From a phage, in NCBI GenBank assembly GCA_020619395.1, contig GCA_020619395.1_4860.1: DNA of 64,000 nt; one strand, written 5' to 3'. Position numbers and translations under genes: made by a program. The notes under the pieces were generated by a model. It ran no database searches. It had not been told where the DNA came from and worked only from the letters and a program-made list of their open reading frames with translations. Shown here piece by piece: positions 15,689-56,089 of the stretch; the stretch's first letter is position 1; each line of letters starts with the position of its first letter.

Positions 15689-16262
15689 AACCGCCAAAGG
15701 CGTGCATAACCAGCGAACGCAGGTCCGGGTCGTTCAGGCGACGAGCCAGACGGTCAACATCGTTGGTATCACGGAAACGGCCTTTATCGGCGCAACGTGC
15801 GTAACGAATCAGCATGTTAATAAAGATAACGAAGACTTCACGCTCGTCACGATTCGGGAAGTTCTCACTGATACGGTTATTAGCAGCCGGTGCGTAGAAA
15901 ATACCGTTACGGTGCTTATTAGCCGCTTCTACAAAGGCGTAGAAACCGTCCAGGAAGGCCTGACCGCGCAGTTTAAACAGCTCACGGAAAGAGTGATGCA
16001 GCTTATTATACGCATCTTTCTCAGCCTGGGTACCAGATGCTTTACGTGGGCCGGCATTGTTACCTGCTTCATCGAGCATCGTGGTGATCAGTTTAACACG
16101 ATATTGGTCGTCGTTGCTGTAAGAAGCGCTATCACGGACCACGCCTTCTGTACGCGGGTCAAGGGTAGTAGTGTCTTTCTTAGTCATGAGGAAACAATCC
16201 TTAGGTGATGTGGAATTTAGGGATGTACTCTTTAACCACGGTTTCGCGACCGTGCATCGCAC
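15687..16262 (-). CDS. hypothetical protein
   Basis: 191-aa ORF; the start is uncertain because the ORF-track start overlaps the upstream gene by 62 nt (alternative Met at 16187). Confidence 0.45.
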   Translation of the reverse strand: MRCTVAKPWLKSTSLNSTSPKDCFLMTKKDTTTLDPRTEGVVRDSASYSNDDQYRVKLITTMLDEAGNNAGPRKASGTQAEKDAYNKLHHSFRELFKLRGQAFLDGFYAFVEAANKHRNGIFYAPAANNRISENFPNRDEREVFVIFINMLIRYARCADKGRFRDTNDVDRLARRLNDPDLRSLVMHAFGG

Positions 16263-17499
16263 CCATTGCAGTGGTCATAACGTTCGAGAAGCCGGAAGAG
16301 ATATCCGCAGCGATTGCCCGTGGCTCTTCTGCTTTGTGTGCAGAGGCGCACGCCGCACAACAGTCTACGTGACCTTGCTGACATAAGATGGGTCGGCGGA
16401 GTCGAACAACTTTACCAAATTGTGTTTTCAAATACTCTTCGGTGAGTTGGGTAACTTTACCGTTAATCATCGCGTTCATGCCAACATAACGCTTGTAGTT
16501 ATACTGGTTAATTACAAGTGCATGTGTCAGTTTTGTCCCGCAATCACCAGGTACGATTTTGTGGTTCTGGAAGATCATCTGGATGATACGTACTTGCTCC
16601 CCGCCCTTGGCAGTTTCTGCACCACGCATGAAGGAACCTTCTCGCGTATCATTGAACTTCTCTACCAGATACTTCATCCCGGTCTGATCAACTTCCATCA
16701 GACTCGTTGGGATTAAGGTAAAATCTGCACCTTCTTTAAAAGCGGTCTGAATACCATACATCAGCATCAGCTTACGGCGACGCATACGCGCTTTAGGAGA
16801 GCTGTAGAACTCAACGGACTGGTCGCCACTCAACCACTCTTTATCAAGTTCGTCGAGAGCTTTTTCAATCATAACGATAACCGCAGGGTTATCCAGTTCG
16901 TCTTTGTGCTTCAACAGCAACGCATCTCGTACCTTATACGCGTCAGGATGCGTTGTAAGGCTTCTAATAGTTCCTGTTGGGGCAATCCCACGACACAACG
17001 GAGCAAGCTCGTGTAGACCCCCTACAAAGCGTCCTATCATGTACGGTCGAATCGCGTCTTCGTTGTCTGGATCGGTGTCATCATATTCCACACAACGCTC
17101 ATACATCTCTTTACGGTAGGCTAGCGGGTCACGAGACTCTGCCAGATACGGGAGACGGGTACCGAAAGCGTAGTAGATAGCAATCCAGTTAAAGACATAG
17201 CGACCCACGGTAGTCGGAATGGGACCAGCTAAACCTGGGTACATCTCAGGACGCAATTCAAACTGCTCTTCCGGCACGAACAGCTCTTCATCTTTTTTGC
17301 ACCCTTCAATCGGCACCCACTTGGTTTCTTCGTTTTCCCAGTAGTGGGGTAAGCCGTCAATATAGTTCAGGTCGTATTGCTCAGGCGGCTCACCTTTTTC
17401 ATTAAAGATAGCCACGTTGAAAACCGCAATACGCCACACCAGTCTACGCCAAGCTTCTGCTTTACACGCAGCAACCAGATAATCAATCTTGTTCATCAT
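16201..17499 (-). CDS. hypothetical protein with a C-terminal Cys cluster
   Basis: 432-aa ORF; CQQGHVDCCAAC cysteine cluster near the C-terminus suggests metal binding; no further assignment. Confidence 0.55.
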   Translation of the reverse strand: MMNKIDYLVAACKAEAWRRLVWRIAVFNVAIFNEKGEPPEQYDLNYIDGLPHYWENEETKWVPIEGCKKDEELFVPEEQFELRPEMYPGLAGPIPTTVGRYVFNWIAIYYAFGTRLPYLAESRDPLAYRKEMYERCVEYDDTDPDNEDAIRPYMIGRFVGGLHELAPLCRGIAPTGTIRSLTTHPDAYKVRDALLLKHKDELDNPAVIVMIEKALDELDKEWLSGDQSVEFYSSPKARMRRRKLMLMYGIQTAFKEGADFTLIPTSLMEVDQTGMKYLVEKFNDTREGSFMRGAETAKGGEQVRIIQMIFQNHKIVPGDCGTKLTHALVINQYNYKRYVGMNAMINGKVTQLTEEYLKTQFGKVVRLRRPILCQQGHVDCCAACASAHKAEEPRAIAADISSGFSNVMTTAMGAMHGRETVVKEYIPKFHIT

Positions 17500-18367
17500 C
17501 TACCTCCGCGTCCCCACTAGCGTATATGACTTTCAACGCTTCCAATCCTTTCCGCAAGATTTCTCCAGGCGGGACGTTGTCGACGTTCAACAAGGCAAGG
17601 TTCTTTTCTAAGTCACCGTAAGCCCCGTCAAACTCCGCATGAGGAATAATCGATAAACCTACCGCATACATCGTCAGCAAATCAATTTCGCTAATGTCTT
17701 CTACGCGAAACTCTAACGACTGCTGCACTACCGTTAAGTCTGGCTCAGCAGGCAGATTCATAAAGACAAACGCTGACGGGTTCTCAGGGAACAACCGCAA
17801 GTAAGTGACGATACGCTCTTGGCGCACATCATCGCTGTTTCGTTTCTGGCTTTCCAACGACTCTGCTGCTAAGAAGTTTTCCATCACGGTAAGCACGCGT
17901 GGGCTGACAACAGTAATCAGGTCTTCAAAGTGCAGGTTTTCGTCACCGTAAACATAACGACACATGTTCTCCAGGATATACTCTGGTGTCTCACCAGAGG
18001 AGACGATCCCGTAAAGAGCGTCGCTGTCTTCGAACTCTTCGAAGGCTTCCAACACACCGTGAAGGATACGTACGGTTTCTTTCGGTTTCTGGAAGACGAT
18101 TTGTGGATTAAGTCCGATACCGAGGCGGTTGCCTAATCCAACCGCTACCTTCACGATAATGGATTCCAGACGAACAGTTTCGTCCGCAGGGTCAGACAAC
18201 GGGTTGCTATAAACATCGGATAACGCCACATCGTAACCGTAATCCATACCGAGCGTCACTAAATCTAGCATCGGTGCTGCACGACCTTCGTGACGGTTGA
18301 CTGTCAATACAGCCGCATAGTCGGTATAAATATCAATCATGGCTCTGTTCCATAGTGAAAAGGGCAT
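17483..18367 (-). CDS. hypothetical protein
   Basis: 294-aa ORF followed by a terminator. Confidence 0.55.
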   Translation of the reverse strand: MPFSLWNRAMIDIYTDYAAVLTVNRHEGRAAPMLDLVTLGMDYGYDVALSDVYSNPLSDPADETVRLESIIVKVAVGLGNRLGIGLNPQIVFQKPKETVRILHGVLEAFEEFEDSDALYGIVSSGETPEYILENMCRYVYGDENLHFEDLITVVSPRVLTVMENFLAAESLESQKRNSDDVRQERIVTYLRLFPENPSAFVFMNLPAEPDLTVVQQSLEFRVEDISEIDLLTMYAVGLSIIPHAEFDGAYGDLEKNLALLNVDNVPPGEILRKGLEALKVIYASGDAEVDDEQD

Positions 18368-28913: not shown

Positions 28914-28930
28914 AAGATAATATCTATCTG
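28914..28930. promoter_or_regulatory. recurrent AGATAATATCTATCT-type promoter-like motif
   Basis: aagataatatctatctg between divergent starts 28884 (-) and 28951 (+); same motif family as 32657, 34073, 42181, 42274, 50184, 53150. Confidence 0.3.
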
Positions 28931-32404: not shown

Positions 32405-34039
32405 TTAAGAATTAAACCATTCAACTTCTTCTAACTTGCGACGTGCATTCAACACCATAAACTCCGCCAGGCTATTGTGCAGTGACAAGTGAGGTATATA
32501 GTTTGGCTGATCCGTCTCACACTTCAGCAGCGCAGCTGCTTCTGGTGTAGCCCTGAGATGGAACAGATACGGGTTGATGTGATCCTTGTGTAACAAGGTC
32601 AATGATTCCCGTGGTGTAGATTGCGGTTCGAGATTACGCGGGTTGCGATACTCCTGAAGATAATATCTATCTAAATCTGCTTTGAGTTCAGATCGAATTG
32701 GGTCGGCTGCATAACCGGCAGACATCTCAGAACGCACCATATTGCAACTTAACAGTTGCGCAACGTCATACATTCCATAATTGAGATAAGTTGCCTGTGC
32801 CAACGCCATACCGTAGCGAAACGCTTCTGGTCCACATTCAGTATACGTCTTATAATGCGCGCTACGATGGAGTGCTAATGCGACTAACCATTCGTGCAAC
32901 GTATAGACAGGACCGTCATGTGTTGCCAGTTGCGAATCAATCAATAACTTAACATCTGCTGGAGCGGCATTATCCAGACGCATTGTTTTCAAGAAAGAGC
33001 GGTATTCTTTAAATACGTACTCGGTACGGACGTATTCTTTCATCTGTGCAGGAGAACGTGCCTGCACCAAATCCATGGCGTTTATCTTACCCTTTTCGCC
33101 ATTGAATACCACACTTTCCGGATGCGCTTTTAACAGCACCGGCTGGTTAGAGATTTTGTTTGCAAAACCTGTTTCAATCTCTTGTTTAACCAGAAAATAC
33201 ATGCCGGTGACGATATTGTTGTTAACCATGATTTCAACCGGTAATTCACCACCGACTTCACGGACAGCCAACAATTTAATAATAGCATACGCCAGGATAT
33301 AATCTTCCATCATATCCGTGCCATAGCCCCGCACCGTAGCCAGTACCGACAAACTGGTGCTGTTCGTACCTTTGTTTGCCAGTTCTTTTTCTACCTTTTC
33401 CATCACTGTCTGTAGGAACCCACGCAGTTTCGGAATAGCAGGTAAAGACATGACTTCCGTGTCTTGAAGCATCTCCAGACAGTATGTCAGATTGTACACC
33501 ATTTTCCGGTGTGTTTCGATTGGCAAGTTCTTACCTATCGGGAACGTCCCCATGGTGAGGAACACCGGAATATACGGTTTAATCATCAGGACCAGTATCA
33601 ACAACTCGTAATAGTCCGGACGAATGTACGTCATCGCTTCCGGATAATTACTGTTCATTTCATCGTGCGTATCTTCCATGTTCTGCGGAATCCACAGCTT
33701 ATCGATGGGATACAGCTTACGATACACTTCGGCCTTGTGGAACTTCGCAATCGTCTGCACAATCTTCGGCATGTGCTTACGCTGCGTTTCCGTCGATTCG
33801 TTTGCCAGCTCGTCCAGCATCAGATACGCCATGAACAGTTCATCTTGTTCGTCTGGCGTTAAATAATCCCACACGCGTTGTAATTCCATGAAGAGAATGT
33901 TGTCGCGTGCAATCTGTTTACCTTTAACAGTGATGTAGTCGGGTGCGTTGTTATCCTTCCGATAACGTAAGCCAATAAATGTGACCTCTTGACCATGATG
34001 CTCGATTGTCATCCGGTCTTTAATCTTCATAATTTTCAT
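32405..34039 (-). CDS. hypothetical protein
   Basis: 544-aa ORF; promoter-like motif 26-40 bp upstream (34073-34089). Confidence 0.6.
   Translation of the reverse strand: MKIMKIKDRMTIEHHGQEVTFIGLRYRKDNNAPDYITVKGKQIARDNILFMELQRVWDYLTPDEQDELFMAYLMLDELANESTETQRKHMPKIVQTIAKFHKAEVYRKLYPIDKLWIPQNMEDTHDEMNSNYPEAMTYIRPDYYELLILVLMIKPYIPVFLTMGTFPIGKNLPIETHRKMVYNLTYCLEMLQDTEVMSLPAIPKLRGFLQTVMEKVEKELANKGTNSTSLSVLATVRGYGTDMMEDYILAYAIIKLLAVREVGGELPVEIMVNNNIVTGMYFLVKQEIETGFANKISNQPVLLKAHPESVVFNGEKGKINAMDLVQARSPAQMKEYVRTEYVFKEYRSFLKTMRLDNAAPADVKLLIDSQLATHDGPVYTLHEWLVALALHRSAHYKTYTECGPEAFRYGMALAQATYLNYGMYDVAQLLSCNMVRSEMSAGYAADPIRSELKADLDRYYLQEYRNPRNLEPQSTPRESLTLLHKDHINPYLFHLRATPEAAALLKCETDQPNYIPHLSLHNSLAEFMVLNARRKLEEVEWFNS
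32657..32673. promoter_or_regulatory. intragenic copy of the AGATAATATCTATCT-type motif
   Basis: gaagataatatctatct inside the 3' end of CDS 32405..34039, about 265 bp upstream of the start of 30692..32392. Confidence 0.25.
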
Positions 34040-34072: not shown

Positions 34073-34089
34073 GAGATAATATCTATCTC
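34073..34089. promoter_or_regulatory. AGATAATATCTATCT-type promoter-like motif
   Basis: gagataatatctatctc in the intergenic region upstream of minus-strand start 34039. Confidence 0.3.
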
Positions 34090-38602: not shown

Positions 38603-40198
38603 TTAGCCCATCACCGCTTCCAACGGAATGCCTTCTTCATCATCCTCATCTGCTTCAATAAGGAACTGGTTCTGCATACTGATTAGCTCGTTATGTAAAA
38701 CCATGCCGTGTTCTACGCGGTCCACATCAGTAGAAGACATAAAGCCGTTATCTGGACGGAATTGGAGTGCCAACTTCATCTCAGTTTCATCGACTGGCAA
38801 ACGTACCTGGAACTGGTCGCCATCGAAATCTCCATTTGCCATCTTGATCACACGGTCAGAGATACGCAGCGAACACTGGTTAACATCGGTAACAACTTCA
38901 TCGATGTACAGCGTTTGAATAGACAACTGTACCAGCGTTGGGTTACGTAACGGTATGACCATGATCCCAAGACCGCCTGGGGATTCACGAATCAGTTCTT
39001 TAAAGATTTCATCTACAAGCGGGTCATACTGCATTGCCGCTTTCGCAACGATACGTTCACACTGCCGTGACGAATAACCGCGTCGTAGCAGTTTGTTCTC
39101 GATGTGGGTCGACATCAACCCAACCATCCAACGCCATGGTGCTTTTAACTTCCAGGCATCATGTGGTTCTGAGATAGGTGAGATGGTTGCACGACCACCG
39201 AACGGGATATGGGTAGAACCCAATTTCGCACGATAGTCACCCGGTTTACCTTCCATAGACTCACGACGGAAGTCCATGTGGAAGTACGTTAACTGACGGT
39301 TCGCCTTCAAAGCGCGACTAATCAGAAAACGTGGTTCGATCGCTTTACGCCGCGTATAGAGCAACGCGATATTTTTCACCGCATCAATAGCACCCGTGAA
39401 CACTGGGTCTACCATGACACCACGACGACCTTCCTCAGTAACGATAAGTTTAGAGGAGATTAGCGGTAAGTGTCTTGGGAAGAATGCGTGACGTTGCGTT
39501 TCGAATAGCTCCTTCCATTGTAAACGTAAGCGTTCACCTTCAGCGGCGTTATGCCGATTAGGTGCGAAGATTTCCTTCCAGGCTTCTGGCGTGGTAAGGA
39601 TGTTAAAGATACTAACGTGGTTATCAACCAGATTGCGCAAGCCACGAACGAAACCGTGTTCTTCCAATACACGTTTCACAGCATGTGCGCGTTTACCGTC
39701 TGGTTCTTCTATACGGTAATACGGGTCAATCATCCACATCATCAAGTCATTACCGCGTTCGATAGTGACCTTGTTACGTTCAAACTTCTTCAACTTGCTA
39801 TTAAAGAAAGCATTGAACATTGCCCAGAATCGTGGGTTGACGAAGTTACCCATTTCATCAGGTGCACGTAACCAGACATCGGATTCAATTCGATGTTCAG
39901 TTACAACATAGCCACACGTCGGACACTTACAACCGAGATTGTAACGATGCGCGATCGGTGCCGGACAATCCAAACTACAAATCGGTGCAGAGTTCAGTTC
40001 TTCGTCAACGATTCTGTTCTGTACCATGCGATCGATAAGTTCAGCAACTTCGATCGCATCCCCGTTAACGGCGACATCGTTAATAATAGTGGGTGGTTTA
40101 ATACCTTTGGCTGCAGCTTCTATTTGCAAATCGGACAAATAGTTATCCTGACTAACCAACCGGCCGGATATTCCGTAGAATTTTGGTACCTTTCTCAC
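38603..40198 (-). CDS. multisubunit RNA polymerase beta-prime-like subunit, N-terminal part
   Basis: 531-aa ORF with N-terminal zinc ribbon (CSLDC ... LGCKCPTCGY), LRNPTLVQLS (resembles conserved beta-prime NRQPTLHRLG) and catalytic MANGDFDGDQ (NADFDGD-type Asp triad). Confidence 0.75.
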   Translation of the reverse strand: MRKVPKFYGISGRLVSQDNYLSDLQIEAAAKGIKPPTIINDVAVNGDAIEVAELIDRMVQNRIVDEELNSAPICSLDCPAPIAHRYNLGCKCPTCGYVVTEHRIESDVWLRAPDEMGNFVNPRFWAMFNAFFNSKLKKFERNKVTIERGNDLMMWMIDPYYRIEEPDGKRAHAVKRVLEEHGFVRGLRNLVDNHVSIFNILTTPEAWKEIFAPNRHNAAEGERLRLQWKELFETQRHAFFPRHLPLISSKLIVTEEGRRGVMVDPVFTGAIDAVKNIALLYTRRKAIEPRFLISRALKANRQLTYFHMDFRRESMEGKPGDYRAKLGSTHIPFGGRATISPISEPHDAWKLKAPWRWMVGLMSTHIENKLLRRGYSSRQCERIVAKAAMQYDPLVDEIFKELIRESPGGLGIMVIPLRNPTLVQLSIQTLYIDEVVTDVNQCSLRISDRVIKMANGDFDGDQFQVRLPVDETEMKLALQFRPDNGFMSSTDVDRVEHGMVLHNELISMQNQFLIEADEDDEEGIPLEAVMG

Positions 40199-40212
40199 TC
40201 TGTCAACCTCAA

Positions 40213-40255
40213 CAAAAAAAGAGGGAAGGACGGAGGCGTTAGCCCCCGTCCGTTT
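40213..40255 (-). terminator. rho-independent terminator after CDS 40281..42134
   Basis: Imperfect hairpin 40228-40251 (ggacgg ... ccgtcc) with + strand A-run 40213-40220. Confidence 0.5.
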
Positions 40256-40280
40256 CCTAACTACTCAGTAACCGATTCGA

Positions 40281-42134
40281 TTACAGTTTGAAGTTGCTCA
40301 GAGACACGCCCAGACCGAAATCGGAACCGCTTGCAGACAGGCCGTTGCCAGACAGCGTGAAGTCTTCCCCACCGTTGTTGAAGAACAGAGAGGTCGCCAT
40401 CGTGTTGTAGGCATTTACACCAGTCATAGACCAGGTGCAGTTGTTACGGACGAAGTCCAGCAGGCATTTACCGAAGATCGGGTTGATAGCCATATCCAGA
40501 GATTCACCGGTAGCTTGCGGTGCTTTGGATGCGAACAGAGAAGCGGCCAGTTTCAGCATGTAGATACGCTGTTGACGCTCGTTCAGTTCACGGTGGCTGT
40601 AGGACTGTGCGTTCAGGTAGCTATAGACGTCGTTCGCGTTATCACCCAGTTTGGTAACAACGGAAATCAGGTCCATATCCTGGAAGCTACGTTTCTGTGC
40701 AGTACCGGTGTAAACACCGGAAACAGTCGGTACGGCTGCTTTCACGATGTGGCTGCAATGGATGGTACCATTGAAGGCATCGCCCAGCTGTGCTTTCAGT
40801 GCAGAAGCAAATACTGCAGTGAAGCTGGTCGCTGCAACAACTTCGCCGTTCTGATCACGCGGGGACATGGAATTCAGAATAGCGAGCAGCTGTTTCAGAG
40901 AGTTGTCGTAACCGACCGCAATTTCAGACAGCATAGTAGACAGACCACCCAGACCGTTACCGGCACGATGGCTAACTACCAGTGCTGCTTCACGCGGTGC
41001 GAACATATCCAGGCAACCTTCGATAGCTTCACGGCTACCGTCGATTTTGGATACATCAGGACGAGCGTCAGCACCCCAGGACAGGTATTCTGCCACACGG
41101 GAGAACTTGCGATCTTGTTTGTTCAGACGTTTCACAAACAGGTCACGCCAGCCACCGATTGCCGCGATTTCTGCAAATGCAGCCAGCAGCAGCAGTTGAC
41201 GTTCATACGGTGCCATTGCACCTTCAGTTTGAGAATCGACCAGACTTACTACGATTTCAGCCTGCAGCTGTTTCAGGTCGTAGACGCCGTTAACGACAGG
41301 CTTCTGACCGGTGAAACGCATGTTGACGAAACCAGTACCGGATACACGCGGATACACCTGTACCTGATTGGTGTCCAGCAGAGTCGGAGTGGCGTCGGAT
41401 ACGTTGCTTGGGCTGTGCTCAACGGTGATTGCGAAATCAGCACGTTGTGCGTGGCCGTTAGCATCCACAACCGCACCATCTTCCAGCGGCATTACTGCAG
41501 CCTGATAACGGTCATGCTTACGCAGGTTCAGCGTACCCAGGTAGCCTGCGATACGACCGAAGATGCCCATCATCATCTGACCCATCAGAGTACGTGCCCA
41601 CTCAGCATCCAGAACTTTACCCAGGTCTGGTACGGAGTTGATGATCATGAAGTTCGCATTGGTCAGACCATGCGCTTCCATGATGTTTTTCTGTACTACT
41701 GCCAGCACGTCTTTGTTGAACAGTTCAGTGATGGTGTAGTAGTCTTCCTGGCCGTTGTTGGTAGTTTCTTTCAGACGCAGAGACTGACCGCGTTCAAAGA
41801 AGATAATACCGTACAGCCAGTGGCCCTGCCATTGGCCTGCGACATACGCCGCGGAACCCATTTCGTTACCCACGCCGGCGATGGTGCCCCAGCGGAACGC
41901 GTTGAGGTATTCGTTGCTTTTCTTCAGCTCGTCCAGGAGGTTGACGAAGTGCATTGCATAGGTGCTGATGTTGCGGATGCCAAATGCGTTATCGAATTGG
42001 CTGACAGTAGAAGTACCCGGCACAGCAGTTTGCACTTTTACAGTCTCGTTGCCCAGACCGCCCAGTGGTGCGGTGTCTTGAGTCTGAGTGTTGTTCTGCT
42101 GAGCGTTGTTGTTAGAGTCAACGATTTTTACCAT
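40281..42134 (-). CDS. abundant-protein candidate: phage nucleus shell protein (chimallin-like); alternatively a major virion protein
   Basis: 617-aa ORF with no enzymatic motifs, own promoter-like motif and terminator; sits immediately upstream of the beta-prime N gene, the arrangement recalled for phiKZ shell protein gp54 next to nvRNAP gp55. Size fits chimallin (about 600-700 aa). Inference only. Confidence 0.4.
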   Translation of the reverse strand: MVKIVDSNNNAQQNNTQTQDTAPLGGLGNETVKVQTAVPGTSTVSQFDNAFGIRNISTYAMHFVNLLDELKKSNEYLNAFRWGTIAGVGNEMGSAAYVAGQWQGHWLYGIIFFERGQSLRLKETTNNGQEDYYTITELFNKDVLAVVQKNIMEAHGLTNANFMIINSVPDLGKVLDAEWARTLMGQMMMGIFGRIAGYLGTLNLRKHDRYQAAVMPLEDGAVVDANGHAQRADFAITVEHSPSNVSDATPTLLDTNQVQVYPRVSGTGFVNMRFTGQKPVVNGVYDLKQLQAEIVVSLVDSQTEGAMAPYERQLLLLAAFAEIAAIGGWRDLFVKRLNKQDRKFSRVAEYLSWGADARPDVSKIDGSREAIEGCLDMFAPREAALVVSHRAGNGLGGLSTMLSEIAVGYDNSLKQLLAILNSMSPRDQNGEVVAATSFTAVFASALKAQLGDAFNGTIHCSHIVKAAVPTVSGVYTGTAQKRSFQDMDLISVVTKLGDNANDVYSYLNAQSYSHRELNERQQRIYMLKLAASLFASKAPQATGESLDMAINPIFGKCLLDFVRNNCTWSMTGVNAYNTMATSLFFNNGGEDFTLSGNGLSASGSDFGLGVSLSNFKL

Positions 42135-42180
42135 TTTAAATATTCCTTAATAGTGATTGCAATCATAGTTCGGTTCGCAG

Positions 42181-42194
42181 AGATAATATCTGCC
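42181..42194. promoter_or_regulatory. AGATAATATCT promoter-like motif upstream of the chimallin-candidate gene
   Basis: agataatatctgcc, 47-60 bp upstream of minus-strand start 42134. Confidence 0.3.
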
Positions 42195-42273: not shown

Positions 42274-42288
42274 AGATAATATCAATCT
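42274..42288. promoter_or_regulatory. AGATAATATC promoter-like motif upstream of + gene 42320
   Basis: agataatatcaatct, about 32-46 bp upstream of ATG 42320. Confidence 0.3.
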
Positions 42289-42319: not shown

Positions 42320-43408
42320 GTGGAATCTAAGGAGTCTGCCATGTTCAGCCAAGCCGAGTTAAACCAAGTGGCCATAAAGGGTCACAGCACGGACCCCTCC
42401 GCTATAACATTAGCGGCTCACGTAAAAAACAACAGCCAGCGTATACGCAACTACTACGAACAGCTTAATCGCAGTGCTGGTAATGGCCATTTGTTGCAAC
42501 AGGTGTTGTCTGCCATCGGCTATGCCGGTGAACCAGAGTACGAAGACATCGAATGGGCTTGCCGTCGCAAGCTTGTTCAGATTGGTAACGCCTTACGCTT
42601 GACGTCTGTTGGTGAGTACGGTCAAATCTTTAATAGCAAGTTTATCCAGGGCCAAGATGAGGTAATCTCTCTCGTAGCCCGCCCAGTAAATCCAGACCTT
42701 TCGTTCCGCGACTACACCCCCGCCCGTTACCTCTACCATGAGTATACCAACCTCAATTGGAAGTTCGGTGACGGACGGCCCCGAGGTGTTACGGTGATCG
42801 AAATCAACCTGGTTGCTTTGCTTTGGCAATATGTCAAAGGTCAGCAACACTACAGTCGCGGTACCGAACCTATTGCCACACCTGTGTATCTCCAACGACA
42901 TGTGATCTCTCGCATGTTGCCGAGCTACATGGATATCGCCTTTGTAAATATACATCGTGCGATAGCCTTCGGGAAAGAGATTGAACCGGATGAAACATTA
43001 CGTGTCATTCCTGTTCCACCGCTTCAAGCTTTAGCTGTGAAGCACGCAAAAGGCATCCGTAGTAAACTACTGGCTGCCAACCCGTTACCGGGACAAGTCT
43101 TAAACAACATCCCATTGTTCTTCCAACACCCTGATGAAGAAGGCCACACAGCACTGGAACTGATTGTCTTTCGAGAACCAGGTCAAACACTGCAGAACAC
43201 CTGGCACCAGAACATGGTGAACTGGTACTGGGCACTGTTTTGTCTTCAATACAACCAGGGGAATATGGAAAAGCATAAACGTACGATGTTGGTTGATTTG
43301 GCGCGTTATGTGGACTCTAAAGTCCTCACACGTCTGACCAAATCCTTCTATAACTTTATCCAACGGGATTTGATTATCCCGTTGACGACAGAGCTAGAAG
43401 AAAAATAA
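42320..43408 (+). CDS. hypothetical protein
   Basis: 362-aa ORF with AAGGAG Shine-Dalgarno upstream; terminator downstream. Confidence 0.6.
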   Translation: MESKESAMFSQAELNQVAIKGHSTDPSAITLAAHVKNNSQRIRNYYEQLNRSAGNGHLLQQVLSAIGYAGEPEYEDIEWACRRKLVQIGNALRLTSVGEYGQIFNSKFIQGQDEVISLVARPVNPDLSFRDYTPARYLYHEYTNLNWKFGDGRPRGVTVIEINLVALLWQYVKGQQHYSRGTEPIATPVYLQRHVISRMLPSYMDIAFVNIHRAIAFGKEIEPDETLRVIPVPPLQALAVKHAKGIRSKLLAANPLPGQVLNNIPLFFQHPDEEGHTALELIVFREPGQTLQNTWHQNMVNWYWALFCLQYNQGNMEKHKRTMLVDLARYVDSKVLTRLTKSFYNFIQRDLIIPLTTELEEK

Positions 43409-43455: not shown

Positions 43456-43500
43456 ACAAAAACTACACACTTCGGTGTGTAGTTCTTTTTTTTATTTTTT
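43456..43500. terminator. rho-independent terminator (strong on +, possibly bidirectional)
   Basis: Hairpin 43462-43483 (actacacac / ttcg / gtgtgtagt) followed by a 17-nt T-run 43484-43500. Confidence 0.65.
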
Positions 43501-43763: not shown

Positions 43764-46043
43764 TTACTCCTCCGCTTCTTCCCCATCCTCTTCCTCTCCA
43801 TCACGTTCAGATTTCTTAACGTACTCGCCGCTACCTAATTCTTCCTTGACCGAGTCTACGGACTCGCCGTAGTAATCCGAAAGCAGACGAGTTCTGTTCT
43901 TGTCCATCATGAAGACACCCAGACATTCCAGGATGTGATAGTAAGGTTCTACTGTGGAGAATGCGCTTCGACGTGTGTCTGCAGCATCAATCAGCTCCGG
44001 AGGAATACCGAAGTTTTCCACCAAGAACTCTGGCAGTATCAGAGTACGATAGGTGCGATAGTTGTTCTCTTCGAACCACCGTGTTGCAGTGGTCTTAATC
44101 ATCGGGTCTTTAATGTTTTCCAGCCACTCTTTAACGGCTGTTTTGTTCTCCAGGTTTACCGGAAGTTTCACGGCGTCATAAGGCGGTTCGTCCAGGTAGC
44201 CGTACTTCGGTCCAAAGATGGCGTTGTACATGCGGTGATAGTGGTAGCTCTTTTCATCATCTTCAGAGTACGCACTACGGTCTTTGACGTTGGTTGTTTT
44301 CAGGTAGCCTGCTTTACCAGCGCGAATAGAATCCACCACAACGTGCTCAATTGCAGCAACCTTTTCCAGCAGAGGCAGAATCTTAATCTTGTCACCACGT
44401 GCCACGATCTCACAGAGTTCTTTAATCGTGCGTTTGAACTCTTTCATGACCACCGGAGGAATGTTCGACGTACGTAAAGACACGCCCTTAACTTCTAACT
44501 CAGGGTCAGACTTCAACTGCCCTTCCTGGCCAGTGATGATGGAGAAATAGTGTTTTGCTTTCGTGGTTAACGCAAAGGAGTCGAACTTAAATTCGTTCTT
44601 CATTGCGTACAAAAACAGACGCTCTTTCGCCACACCGATATTCGCCGACATACTCGCCATCAGATGACGTAAGTGCTGGGTTGCGATATAAATCATCGCA
44701 TCCGATACGCGCGTAGCTTCACGACCGTAATGTTGGCCGGTATACCACTGCGCCCACCACTGTGCAGTCATCATCGTGGAGTCGGTATCAGACACCACGC
44801 CGACACGACGAACCACGTCGGGCATCCTGGCAATGTTGATTGGCAGGTTTTTGGTGGTCAGGATATTACGAATCAAGCACGCGTACTTACCGATGGTTTT
44901 CTGCAGATACACAGCTGAGCGAATCAGCTCTTTGTATTTTTCCTGCTTATCCCACGGTTCCGCTTTGTTCGTGTTTTCGTCTTTGAGTTTAACGTCAGAG
45001 AACGACTTACCTAACGGCACGATATCAGTACGGAACTGCGAGATAATGATCTGCATGTCACCGTCGATAGAGCGCTCAGCGGCATCCCAATCAGTGATCT
45101 CGTCTTCCATCTCCTCGGCAATCAGCGCGCCGATAAATCCGCGCATGAATTCATCGTTGTATTTCGCCAGGTGGTAGAAGTCACCCATGTAGACAAACGC
45201 TGCACGTACCAGCGGGCTACAATTACCGACGTAGTGACGAATGAACTCCAGCCCTTCGTCGTTACGGAAGTAAAACTCTGCAGAGTACATAACCACTTCC
45301 ATAACCTCGTCCACTGTTGGGTAGTGGAGGTTATAGAGTTCCATACACTTCTTGAACTCCGCAAAGTTAGTCAGTGTACCGATAGAAAGTAGGTGGTCGA
45401 TAACACGGGACGGCGTGTCGTAGTGACGATTACCGCCCAGTAGACGTTCGTTGCCCGCGTTACCGAACGATGTAGCCGTACGGCAGGTTGACGTCAATAC
45501 AGAGTGCGAGGACTGGTTAAAGATTACCGTGTACGGTGATGAGAATGCACCCGACATTCCGTTGTTCAACGTCTTAACAGCGTTCTGTTCGTTCTTTTTG
45601 TTAATACGCAGAACTTCATTACCCGCAGCACCTGCTGCGTACATCTCTTTCTTAACGACCGCACGCTTACGCACGTTCTCTGCGGTAAATTCAGCAAGCT
45701 TAGAGCGCTTGACGTGCTCAGGCAGATAAAAGGTCAGCGACGGTGCAGAAATAATCTGCTTATCAATCACTGTACGGAACAGTTTATCTACCGTGGTGTA
45801 TTTTTCTTCGCGATCGCCGGTCTTTTGATTGCGCACCCACATCTTACACACGGGGAATTCGTGTACTAACTCACCACCAGGTTGGAACATTTCTTCGACC
45901 TGCTGTCGACAGAACTCCAAAGAATATTTCCCGTTGGTGACGGTATGAATGTAGAGCGCCAGTTGTTCGTAGTACGCATCGATAACGTCAATGTCGCGAT
46001 GATACTCGTCTTGACTAAGACGAAATGGTGAATTGTAGTCCAC
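43764..46043 (-). CDS. family-B DNA polymerase, polymerase-domain part (candidate)
   Basis: 759-aa ORF with motif A-like SAPSLTFYLP (cf. D-x-x-SLYPS), motif B-like KTLNNGMSGAF (K-x3-N-S-x-Y-G) and motif C VVSDTDS (YGDTDS); no exonuclease motifs in this ORF. Confidence 0.55.
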   Translation of the reverse strand: MDYNSPFRLSQDEYHRDIDVIDAYYEQLALYIHTVTNGKYSLEFCRQQVEEMFQPGGELVHEFPVCKMWVRNQKTGDREEKYTTVDKLFRTVIDKQIISAPSLTFYLPEHVKRSKLAEFTAENVRKRAVVKKEMYAAGAAGNEVLRINKKNEQNAVKTLNNGMSGAFSSPYTVIFNQSSHSVLTSTCRTATSFGNAGNERLLGGNRHYDTPSRVIDHLLSIGTLTNFAEFKKCMELYNLHYPTVDEVMEVVMYSAEFYFRNDEGLEFIRHYVGNCSPLVRAAFVYMGDFYHLAKYNDEFMRGFIGALIAEEMEDEITDWDAAERSIDGDMQIIISQFRTDIVPLGKSFSDVKLKDENTNKAEPWDKQEKYKELIRSAVYLQKTIGKYACLIRNILTTKNLPINIARMPDVVRRVGVVSDTDSTMMTAQWWAQWYTGQHYGREATRVSDAMIYIATQHLRHLMASMSANIGVAKERLFLYAMKNEFKFDSFALTTKAKHYFSIITGQEGQLKSDPELEVKGVSLRTSNIPPVVMKEFKRTIKELCEIVARGDKIKILPLLEKVAAIEHVVVDSIRAGKAGYLKTTNVKDRSAYSEDDEKSYHYHRMYNAIFGPKYGYLDEPPYDAVKLPVNLENKTAVKEWLENIKDPMIKTTATRWFEENNYRTYRTLILPEFLVENFGIPPELIDAADTRRSAFSTVEPYYHILECLGVFMMDKNRTRLLSDYYGESVDSVKEELGSGEYVKKSERDGEEEDGEEAEE

Positions 46044-50183: not shown

Positions 50184-50198
50184 AGATAATATCTATGC
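50184..50198. promoter_or_regulatory. AGATAATATCTAT promoter-like motif
   Basis: agataatatctatgc in the divergent region between minus start 50153 and plus start 50317. Confidence 0.3.
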
Positions 50199-53149: not shown

Positions 53150-53164
53150 AGGTAATATCTATCT
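53150..53164. promoter_or_regulatory. GTAATATCTATCT promoter-like motif
   Basis: ggtaatatctatctg, 60-75 bp upstream of minus start 53090. Confidence 0.3.
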
Positions 53165-54517: not shown

Positions 54518-54661
54518 AGCAAACGGACGGATTCGAACCGTCGAAATATCCGATTATGAGTCGGGTGTTAATTCCTCTAACTTCGCTGCTCTTGCTTTGA
54601 CCGGACTCGAACCGGCGACCTTCCTCGAAGAGGTTGCTCTACCTACCTGAGCTACAAAGCC
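54518..54661 (-). ncRNA. two tandem degenerate tRNA-like elements
   Basis: Element 1 (about 54518-54595): D-arm GTTA/TAAC, anticodon-like arm CCCGA-CTCATAA-TCGGA (CAU loop), T-arm GACGG-TTCGAAT-CCGTC, acceptor pairing imperfect. Element 2 (54593-54661): acceptor GGCTTTG/CAAAGC, D-arm GCTC/GAGC, T-arm GCCGG-TTCGAGT-CCGGT, but anticodon arm and variable region too short. Confidence 0.3.
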
Positions 54662-56013: not shown

Positions 56014-56089
56014 TGGCGGGGGCACGAGGTTTCGAACCTCGAACCTTCGGTTTTGGAGACCGGTGCGCTACCAATTGCGCCATACCCCC
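56014..56089 (-). tRNA. tRNA-Trp (anticodon CCA)
   Basis: Hand-folded 76-nt cloverleaf: acceptor GGGGGTA/TGCCCCC, U8, D-arm GCGC-AATTGGTA-GCGC, anticodon arm CCGGT-CTCCAAA-ACCGA (U33, CCA, A37), variable AGGTT, T-arm CGAGG-TTCGAAA-CCTCG, discriminator G, encoded CCA. Confidence 0.85.

Follow-up and report, generated by a model that had tools for sequence, protein, structure and literature searches.

chmA, a probable phage-nucleus shell (chimallin) gene of a SPN3US-like Salmonella jumbo phage, and its putative expression signals

Background

The question raised by positions 38603-42134 of the phage contig GCA_020619395.1_4860.1 is what is encoded by an open reading frame (ORF) of 617 amino acids that lies next to a gene for an RNA polymerase subunit. 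The DNA analysed was a 64-kb stretch of this contig (64,000 nucleotides; the window, to which all coordinates refer). A preliminary description of this sequence had proposed, from synteny alone, chimallin (ChmA), which forms the phage-nucleus shell, as the product of the gene, with a major capsid protein or another abundant structural protein as the alternative. Both ORFs are located where they had been described: the 617-amino acid ORF (40281..42134, minus strand) possesses an ATG start, and the 531-amino acid ORF (38603..40198, minus strand), which follows after a spacer of 82 nt, possesses a GTG start in agreement with the annotation of phage SPN3US.

The 3.5-kb stretch shares 98.5-99.5% nucleotide identity with SPN3US-like Salmonella jumbo phages of the genus Seoulvirus (SPLA1a, the SPFM series and SPN3US). 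The 617-amino acid protein is 99.5-100% identical to 'hypothetical protein' entries of SPN3US-like phages, and 99.5% identical to that of SPN3US itself. The counterpart gene in SPN3US is located at 15768..17621 and is listed as SPN3US_0022 in GenBank (AEP83855.1) and as ACQ60_gp244 in RefSeq (YP_009153316.1). The gene is assigned here, with a probability of about 93%, to chmA, encoding the major phage-nucleus shell protein of a SPN3US-like (Seoulvirus) jumbo phage. This assignment is already known: a name was given to the SPN3US protein in 2022, and validation of an orthologue followed in 2025.

Fold of the 617-amino acid protein

An AlphaFold2 model of the protein was built on an alignment of 27 sequences; the set of 27 homologues used for this alignment and for a hidden Markov model (HMM) is 43-86% identical. 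The model (mean predicted local distance difference test score, pLDDT, of 73.9; predicted template modelling score of 0.77) consists of a folded core of residues 57-578 and two tails of low confidence, residues 1-56 and 579-617 (pLDDT <50). A Foldseek search of the PDB with this model gave nine matches at E<=1e-3, and all nine are chimallins: those of Goslar (7SQV, 7SQT, 7SQU), 201phi2-1 gp105 (7SQQ, 7SQS, 7SQR and 8IGG, the last with chains A and B) and phiPA3 gp53, or PhuN (8FNE). These matches, which comprise the solved chimallins, have E values of 2.3e-21 to 7.3e-17, a probability of 1.00 and TM scores of 0.56-0.68 over about 560-610 columns, while the tenth match has an E value of 0.05. 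The model thus predicts the two-domain core of chimallins, composed of an alpha/beta N-domain and a GNAT-like C-domain without a detectable acetyltransferase signature. Identity to the solved chimallins in the structural alignments is 12-14%.

Profile comparison is in line with this result. Using hhalign, the family of 27 homologues was aligned with five chimallins (phiKZ gp54, 201phi2-1 gp105 and those of Goslar, PCH45 and Ea35-70) at 92.8% probability and E 4e-7, with 470 collinear columns and 16% identity. The alignment spans nearly the full length of both, residues 57-557 of the window protein and 68-585 of the chimallins. Homology of the sequence to established chimallins is detected at this profile-profile level only.

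The alternative that the protein is a major capsid protein, or another abundant structural protein of the virion, draws on a size of 67 kDa, on strong expression signals and on a lack of enzymatic motifs, and on nothing else. It is refuted by the fold searches: no HK97-type capsid protein was found in either fold-search list. The major capsid protein of SPN3US is gp75, which has an HK97-type fold, and the SPN3US counterpart of the 617-amino acid protein, gp22, is absent from purified wild-type virions and from DNA-full heads (PMC7411985). The probability left to this alternative is close to nil. The preliminary description had named homology to HK97-fold capsid proteins, or an absence of similarity to chimallins, as grounds for rejecting its proposal: neither was encountered, with similarity to chimallins present at the level of profile and structure.

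Tails and conserved segments

The first ten residues of the protein contain a conserved MVKxV start and are followed by a variable linker of low complexity (residues 11-43; 30% majority identity, with indels) and a conserved block, FDxAFG, at residues 44-56. The two-domain core (residues 57-578) is followed by a tail possessing two further conserved blocks, SLFFNNGGExFxLSGNG (about residues 581-597) and SDFGLGVxLxxFxL (about 604-617), separated by a variable spacer (about 598-603). The protein is therefore predicted to possess flexible tails with short conserved segments, as judged from the model and from conservation among the 27 sequences. The C-terminal tail (579-617) is predicted to be disordered and its conservation equals that of the core (0.65 versus 0.69), as would be expected for segments whose folding depends on a partner.

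This layout closely parallels that of 201phi2-1 chimallin, which consists of a dispensable N-terminal tail (1-47), the NTS segment (48-61), the core (62-581) and the CTS1 (590-611) and CTS2 (622-631) segments. In that protein the NTS docks on a neighbour inside the tetramer, and CTS1 and CTS2, on flexible linkers, join tetramers to one another. By analogy, the block at 44-56 may be described as NTS-like, and those at about 581-597 and 604-617 as CTS1-like and CTS2-like. The sequences of the tails are unrelated to those of the solved chimallins.

The tails also bear on possible processing of the protein. The sole strict A-X-E site, as recognized by the prohead protease, is located at residues 370-372 within the folded core. 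G588-G589-E590, in the linker between core and C-terminal tail, fits the rule of the phiKZ protease and not the A-X-E rule of SPN3US; phiKZ gp54 is cut by its own prohead protease at the corresponding position. Cleavage of the window protein near G-G-E 588-590 by the prohead protease is therefore a speculation.

A glycine-rich loop and the GNAT question

Conservation within the family peaks at an invariant strand-loop-helix, HRAGNGLGGLS (residues 389-399), within VVSHRAGNGLGGLS (386-399); residues 383-399 are encoded at 40938-40988 on the minus strand. By eye, this loop resembles motif A of GNAT enzymes, and in the hhalign alignment it has no counterpart in canonical chimallins. Together with the identity of just 12-14% to the solved chimallins, it is the ground for an alternative in which the protein, although of chimallin ancestry, became a GNAT-derived enzyme or toxin-like protein with a function other than the shell in the SPN3US-type clade. 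Against this, no Pfam GNAT family was matched at E<=10, and hhalign against an approximate sequence of Escherichia coli RimI gave a probability of 0.1% and no GNAT support. A GNAT signature including the acetyl-CoA-binding motif A is thus not found, and similarity is confined to the fold of the C-domain. Unlike AtaT-type GNAT-fold toxins, which acetylate tRNA, and other GCN5-related acetyltransferases, the window protein lacks the signature; it is also predicted to carry an additional N-domain as well as assembly tails and to have a structural, non-enzymatic role. Furthermore, the conserved position holds no other chimallin candidate, the orthologue in Erwinia phage Asesino forms a shell, and square lattices occur in SPN3US lysates (both described below). 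An enzyme or toxin is accordingly a highly improbable explanation. Within a shell protein, the loop might be a ligand-binding site that has been retained, or else a lattice contact specific to the clade.

Gene order and the neighbouring RNA polymerase gene

The preliminary description noted that in phiKZ the shell protein gene (gp54) is followed by that of a non-virion RNA polymerase (nvRNAP) subunit, gp55, and it identified the gene downstream of chmA as one for the N-terminal part of the beta' subunit. Both points hold. The best PDB match of the 531-amino acid protein is chain A of the phiKZ nvRNAP (PHIKZ055, gp55; 7ogp_A; E 1.4e-38, residues 52-494), with cellular beta' chains matched at E about 1e-4 and phrog_2987 at E 1e-179. 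Its catalytic motif, NGDFDGD (residues 455-461; codons at 38816..38836, minus strand), aligns with NADFDGD. Since the best match is to 7OGP, similarity extends to cellular beta' chains and the catalytic motif is present, the 531-amino acid gene is, from its sequence, identified as that of a gp55-type nvRNAP beta' N-terminal subunit.

The order gp54 then gp55 is found in phiKZ. In 201phi2-1, gp105, annotated as 'nuclear shell protein', is followed by gp106 and gp107, so that gp106 lies between the two genes. Goslar possesses, in order, a DNA polymerase gene, a divergent gene of 364 amino acids, the 'nuclear shell protein' gene and the RNA polymerase gene; the same four-gene order is found in Ea35-70, and similar arrangements of chmA and the RNA polymerase gene occur in PCH45, Asesino, Caitlin, CR5 and Huxley. 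The window carries the same block, read on the minus strand: a divergent family B DNA polymerase as its outer member (43764..46043, minus strand; PF20286, E 4e-284), a divergently transcribed gene of 362 amino acids (SPN3US_0021; 42320..43408, plus strand; phrog_3938), chmA and the RNA polymerase gene. The DNA polymerase is found at this place of the block in Goslar, Ea35-70, Caitlin and CR5 as well, and the 362-amino acid gene is homologous to its positional counterparts in Goslar (E 3e-12) and Ea35-70 (E 2e-10). The 617-amino acid gene thus occupies the conserved genomic position of chimallins beside a gp55-type gene.

Several further observations concern these neighbours. The 362-amino acid gene has kept its place in Goslar, Ea35-70, Asesino, Caitlin, CR5 and Huxley, has a weak match to a virion structural PHROG (E 0.006) and is followed by a clean plus-strand terminator (43461-43484). 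In phiKZ, gp52, which is annotated as a 'structural head protein', lies upstream of gp53 and gp54 and is carried by the other strand. The RNA polymerase gene of the window is an intron-less allele: a group I intron (RF00028; 67.9 and 51.9 bits, at 1649-1970 and 577-905 of the respective loci) is carried by this gene in SPLA5c, where it adds 356 bp, and in Proteus phage 7, where 1.4 kb with an ORF of 286 amino acids are added. The insertion follows nucleotides 1361-1368 of the gene, that is codons 454-457 at the start of NGDFDGD (window 38816-38837). In Goslar, an annotated group I intron and a gene for an HNH endonuclease immediately follow the RNA polymerase gene. PDB chain 7ogp_A of phiKZ links gp55 with gp56.1, bridging the gp56 gene, and so points to an insertion of this kind. 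Elsewhere in the window, a tRNA-Trp (CCA anticodon; Rfam 65.6 bits, with ARAGORN in agreement) and two weaker tRNA-like neighbours (Rfam 40.9 and 30.6 bits, neither called by ARAGORN) were identified at 54518-54661 and 56014-56089, both on the minus strand. They lie in a gene-poor region of about 54.5-59 kb with several non-coding gaps of 290-700 nt.

Expression signals

The start of chmA is supported by a ribosome-binding site, AAGGA (42144..42148, minus strand), read directly 9 nt before the ATG. It is kept as AAGGAAT in the alignment of the regions upstream of the orthologues, and the N-terminal MVK is common to 27 of 27 homologues. Further upstream, two copies of the motif (A/T)GATATTATCT are present on the coding strand, in the same orientation: a proximal box, AGATATTATCT (42181..42191, minus strand), 47-57 nt upstream of the ATG, and a distal box, TGATATTATCT (42274..42284, minus strand), 140-150 nt upstream. 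The preliminary description's promoter-like motif is therefore present as two conserved 11-mer boxes, although these are not of the sigma-70 type. On the minus strand of the window, AGATATTATCT occurs at seven sites with up to one mismatch (28915-28925, 32658-32668, 34074-34084, 42181-42191, 42274-42284, 50184-50194 and 53150-53160) versus 0.78 expected, a number reached in none of 100 shuffles. All seven share one orientation, most are located 30-70 nt upstream of the start of a minus-strand gene, and AGAT often precedes them.

Asesino, Caitlin, Huxley and CR5, which belong to four other genera and whose proteins are 43-64% identical, keep both boxes upstream of the orthologue; the conserved flanks are ACAGAT or CAGGC before the box and nnGTGA after it. 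The same layout is seen in phiKZ gp54 and Goslar chmA, with GAAAAAAATTT(g/c)AG(a/g)(t/g)TTATATTAC upstream of both. Published work on jumbo phages describes their early promoters as AT-rich and conserved, some 10 nt in length and situated near -10, and as read by the virion RNA polymerase (PMC7598289). As their layout fits this description, the chmA boxes are regarded as putative early promoters, and the 11-mer probably represents the consensus of early promoters, those of the virion RNA polymerase, in the SPN3US-like group. The sole sigma-70 match near chmA (42162..42133) overlaps the ATG and was rejected as unusable; sigma-70-like matches are rarer than in shuffles (3 versus 7.2).

The 'own terminator' that had been described for chmA was also identified. 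A terminator-like structure (40214..40251, minus strand) lies between chmA and the RNA polymerase gene: it consists of a 10-bp hairpin, GGACGGGGGC-TAAC-GCCTCCGTCC (40228-40251), followed by TTCCCTC and a tract of seven T (40214-40220). The hairpin was assessed by direct reading, folding and comparative analysis. A consensus terminator scan reported only plus-strand sites at chance level, missing the hairpin because its T run starts 7 nt beyond the stem. The z-score of the single-sequence fold is only -1.83, and the hairpin's support is covariation: it is kept in five phages (that of the window, Asesino, Caitlin, Huxley and CR5), and four of its stem positions show compensatory changes. No box is present in the spacer between chmA and the RNA polymerase gene, so chmA is inferred to be a strong unit from which transcription partly reads through into the RNA polymerase gene. 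The boxes and the covarying terminator would define the chmA expression unit of this clade.

Shell protein or head scaffold

The SPN3US protein has been described under two numbers. Laughlin et al. (2022) named SPN3US 'gp244' as a diverged homologue of chimallin and linked it to the square lattice of SPN3US lysates; Heymann et al. (2020) had described this lattice as a p4 sheet with a 6.7-nm cell. The tetragonal sheets were observed after an SPN3US mutant infection, in clarified lysate, and it was Laughlin et al. who attributed them to chimallin. In GenBank numbering, gp244 of SPN3US is the small beta' C-terminal subunit of the virion RNA polymerase (PMC7598289). SPN3US_0244 is a protein of just 240 amino acids; the gp244 of Laughlin et al. 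is therefore the RefSeq tag, that is chmA. A recent review also counts SPN3US among the nucleus-forming phages.

[quoted passage not shown] One SPN3US gene thus carries two numbers and two conflicting proposals. Peptide counts of gp22 are similar to those of the major capsid protein in gradient-purified, prohead-rich preparations of protease mutants (PMC7411985), and its absence from virions and DNA-full heads, noted above, would suit a scaffold as well; as cited in PMC7552025, the protein is 'abundant in infected cells'. However, its predicted fold is that of chimallins and not of a helical scaffold, chmA is located in a replication and transcription block behind boxes of early-promoter type rather than in the head module, and there is little or no gp22 in mottled capsids. 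The large tetragonal protein sheets in the mutant lysate could also co-sediment and co-purify with proheads, which would explain the abundance of gp22 without a role inside the head. Alternatively, gp22 in prohead preparations of protease mutants may conceivably be shell that is still attached to docked proheads and needs a cut by the prohead protease for its release.

The orthologue in Asesino likewise speaks against a scaffold. Prichard et al. (2025; PMC11724907) found that GFP-tagged (green fluorescent protein) Asesino gp39 rings the phage DNA, and they named gp040 as nvRNAP beta'1. ASESINO_39 is 64.4% identical to the window protein over 100% of its length and is followed by ASESINO_40. 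The Asesino locus resembles that of the window in its order (DNA polymerase, small ORFs, a divergent gene of about 355 amino acids, chmA and nvRNAP beta'1) and in the retention of boxes and hairpin. It differs in host (Erwinia versus Salmonella), in genus (Erskinevirus versus Seoulvirus) and in the sequence of the low-complexity N-terminal tail. A scaffold function for the 617-amino acid protein is considered very unlikely.

Strength of the chmA assignment

A number of points weigh against reading the gene as chmA. Pfam gave zero matches for the 617-amino acid protein even at E<=10, which bears out the preliminary description's remark on the lack of enzymatic motifs; a label precomputed on some homologues, PF25677.3, could not be reproduced with Pfam and was not used. 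The one match among PHROGs is phrog_8316, of 'unknown function'. Against all PDB sequences, phmmer gave nothing at E<=1 and the HMM of the 27 homologues nothing at E<=10, while a control profile of five accepted chimallins retrieved 7SQQ, 8IGG, 7SQT and 8FNE, confirming that chimallins are present in the library searched. BLASTP against Goslar chimallin gave an E value of 0.13. The structural case comes from a predicted model on an alignment of fairly limited depth (27 sequences; Neff about 2.4), and the blocks likened to NTS, CTS1 and CTS2, which lie outside the hhalign match, would be their counterparts by analogy. The promoter class of the boxes and the function of the terminator are deduced from sequence. 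The evidence for shell localisation comes from Asesino gp39, an orthologue of the window protein, and the lattice of SPN3US has a reported periodicity of 13.5 nm (6.7-nm cell) versus 11.5 nm in 201phi2-1 and Goslar.

Set beside these points are the predicted chimallin core fold, the conserved chimallin position and the two conserved boxes with the hairpin, all found at this locus. The proposal first made from synteny is consistent with the fold, the hhalign alignment, the gene order, the non-virion RNA polymerase neighbour and the literature. Comparison with chimallins was positive for profiles (hhalign) and for structures (Foldseek), and negative with BLASTP, a check that the preliminary description had suggested; since sequence searches fail for chmA, that check would mislead. 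Because of the difference in periodicity, the unrelated tail segments and the clade-specific HRAGNGLGGLS loop, it is also conceivable, if rather unlikely, that chimallins of the SPN3US/Asesino clade build a shell organised differently from the solved ones.

By the reading of the gene as chmA, the injected virion RNA polymerase would transcribe it early and strongly, starting from the (A/T)GATATTATCT boxes. Most transcripts would end at the hairpin, with read-through giving the RNA polymerase gene at a lower level. As in the solved chimallins, ChmA protomers would form tetramers and these a square lattice, in which the NTS-like segment (44-56) and the CTS1- and CTS2-like segments (about 581-597 and 604-617), on flexible linkers, may dock on neighbouring protomers. 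The resulting sheet would enclose the replicating phage DNA, exclude host nucleases and separate transcription from translation.

Annotation and implications

Public records of SPN3US-type chmA use the name 'hypothetical protein' throughout. BLAST, Pfam and searches of PDB sequences with an HMM fail for this gene, and comparison of structures or of profiles alone succeeds. In the near-identical phages SPFM5-SPFM14 and SPFM20, the annotated ChmA proteins are truncated (413-586 amino acids) and tblastn with chmA gives 3-7 pieces of low identity at 16-42% coverage; this fragmentation looks like the product of error-rich assemblies and not true divergence.

As the chmA assignment itself is published, the value added here lies in the annotation gap, the conflict between the names gp22 and gp244, the expression unit and the description of a diverged clade of chimallins. 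To our knowledge, no structure has been solved for the SPN3US/Asesino clade. The chimallin assignment also bears out the suggestion that the phage belongs to the nucleus-forming group, placing it in the Chimalliviridae. Nucleus-forming phages shield their DNA from restriction enzymes and from DNA-targeting CRISPR systems, and membership of this family is relevant to phage therapy and to research on phage defence.

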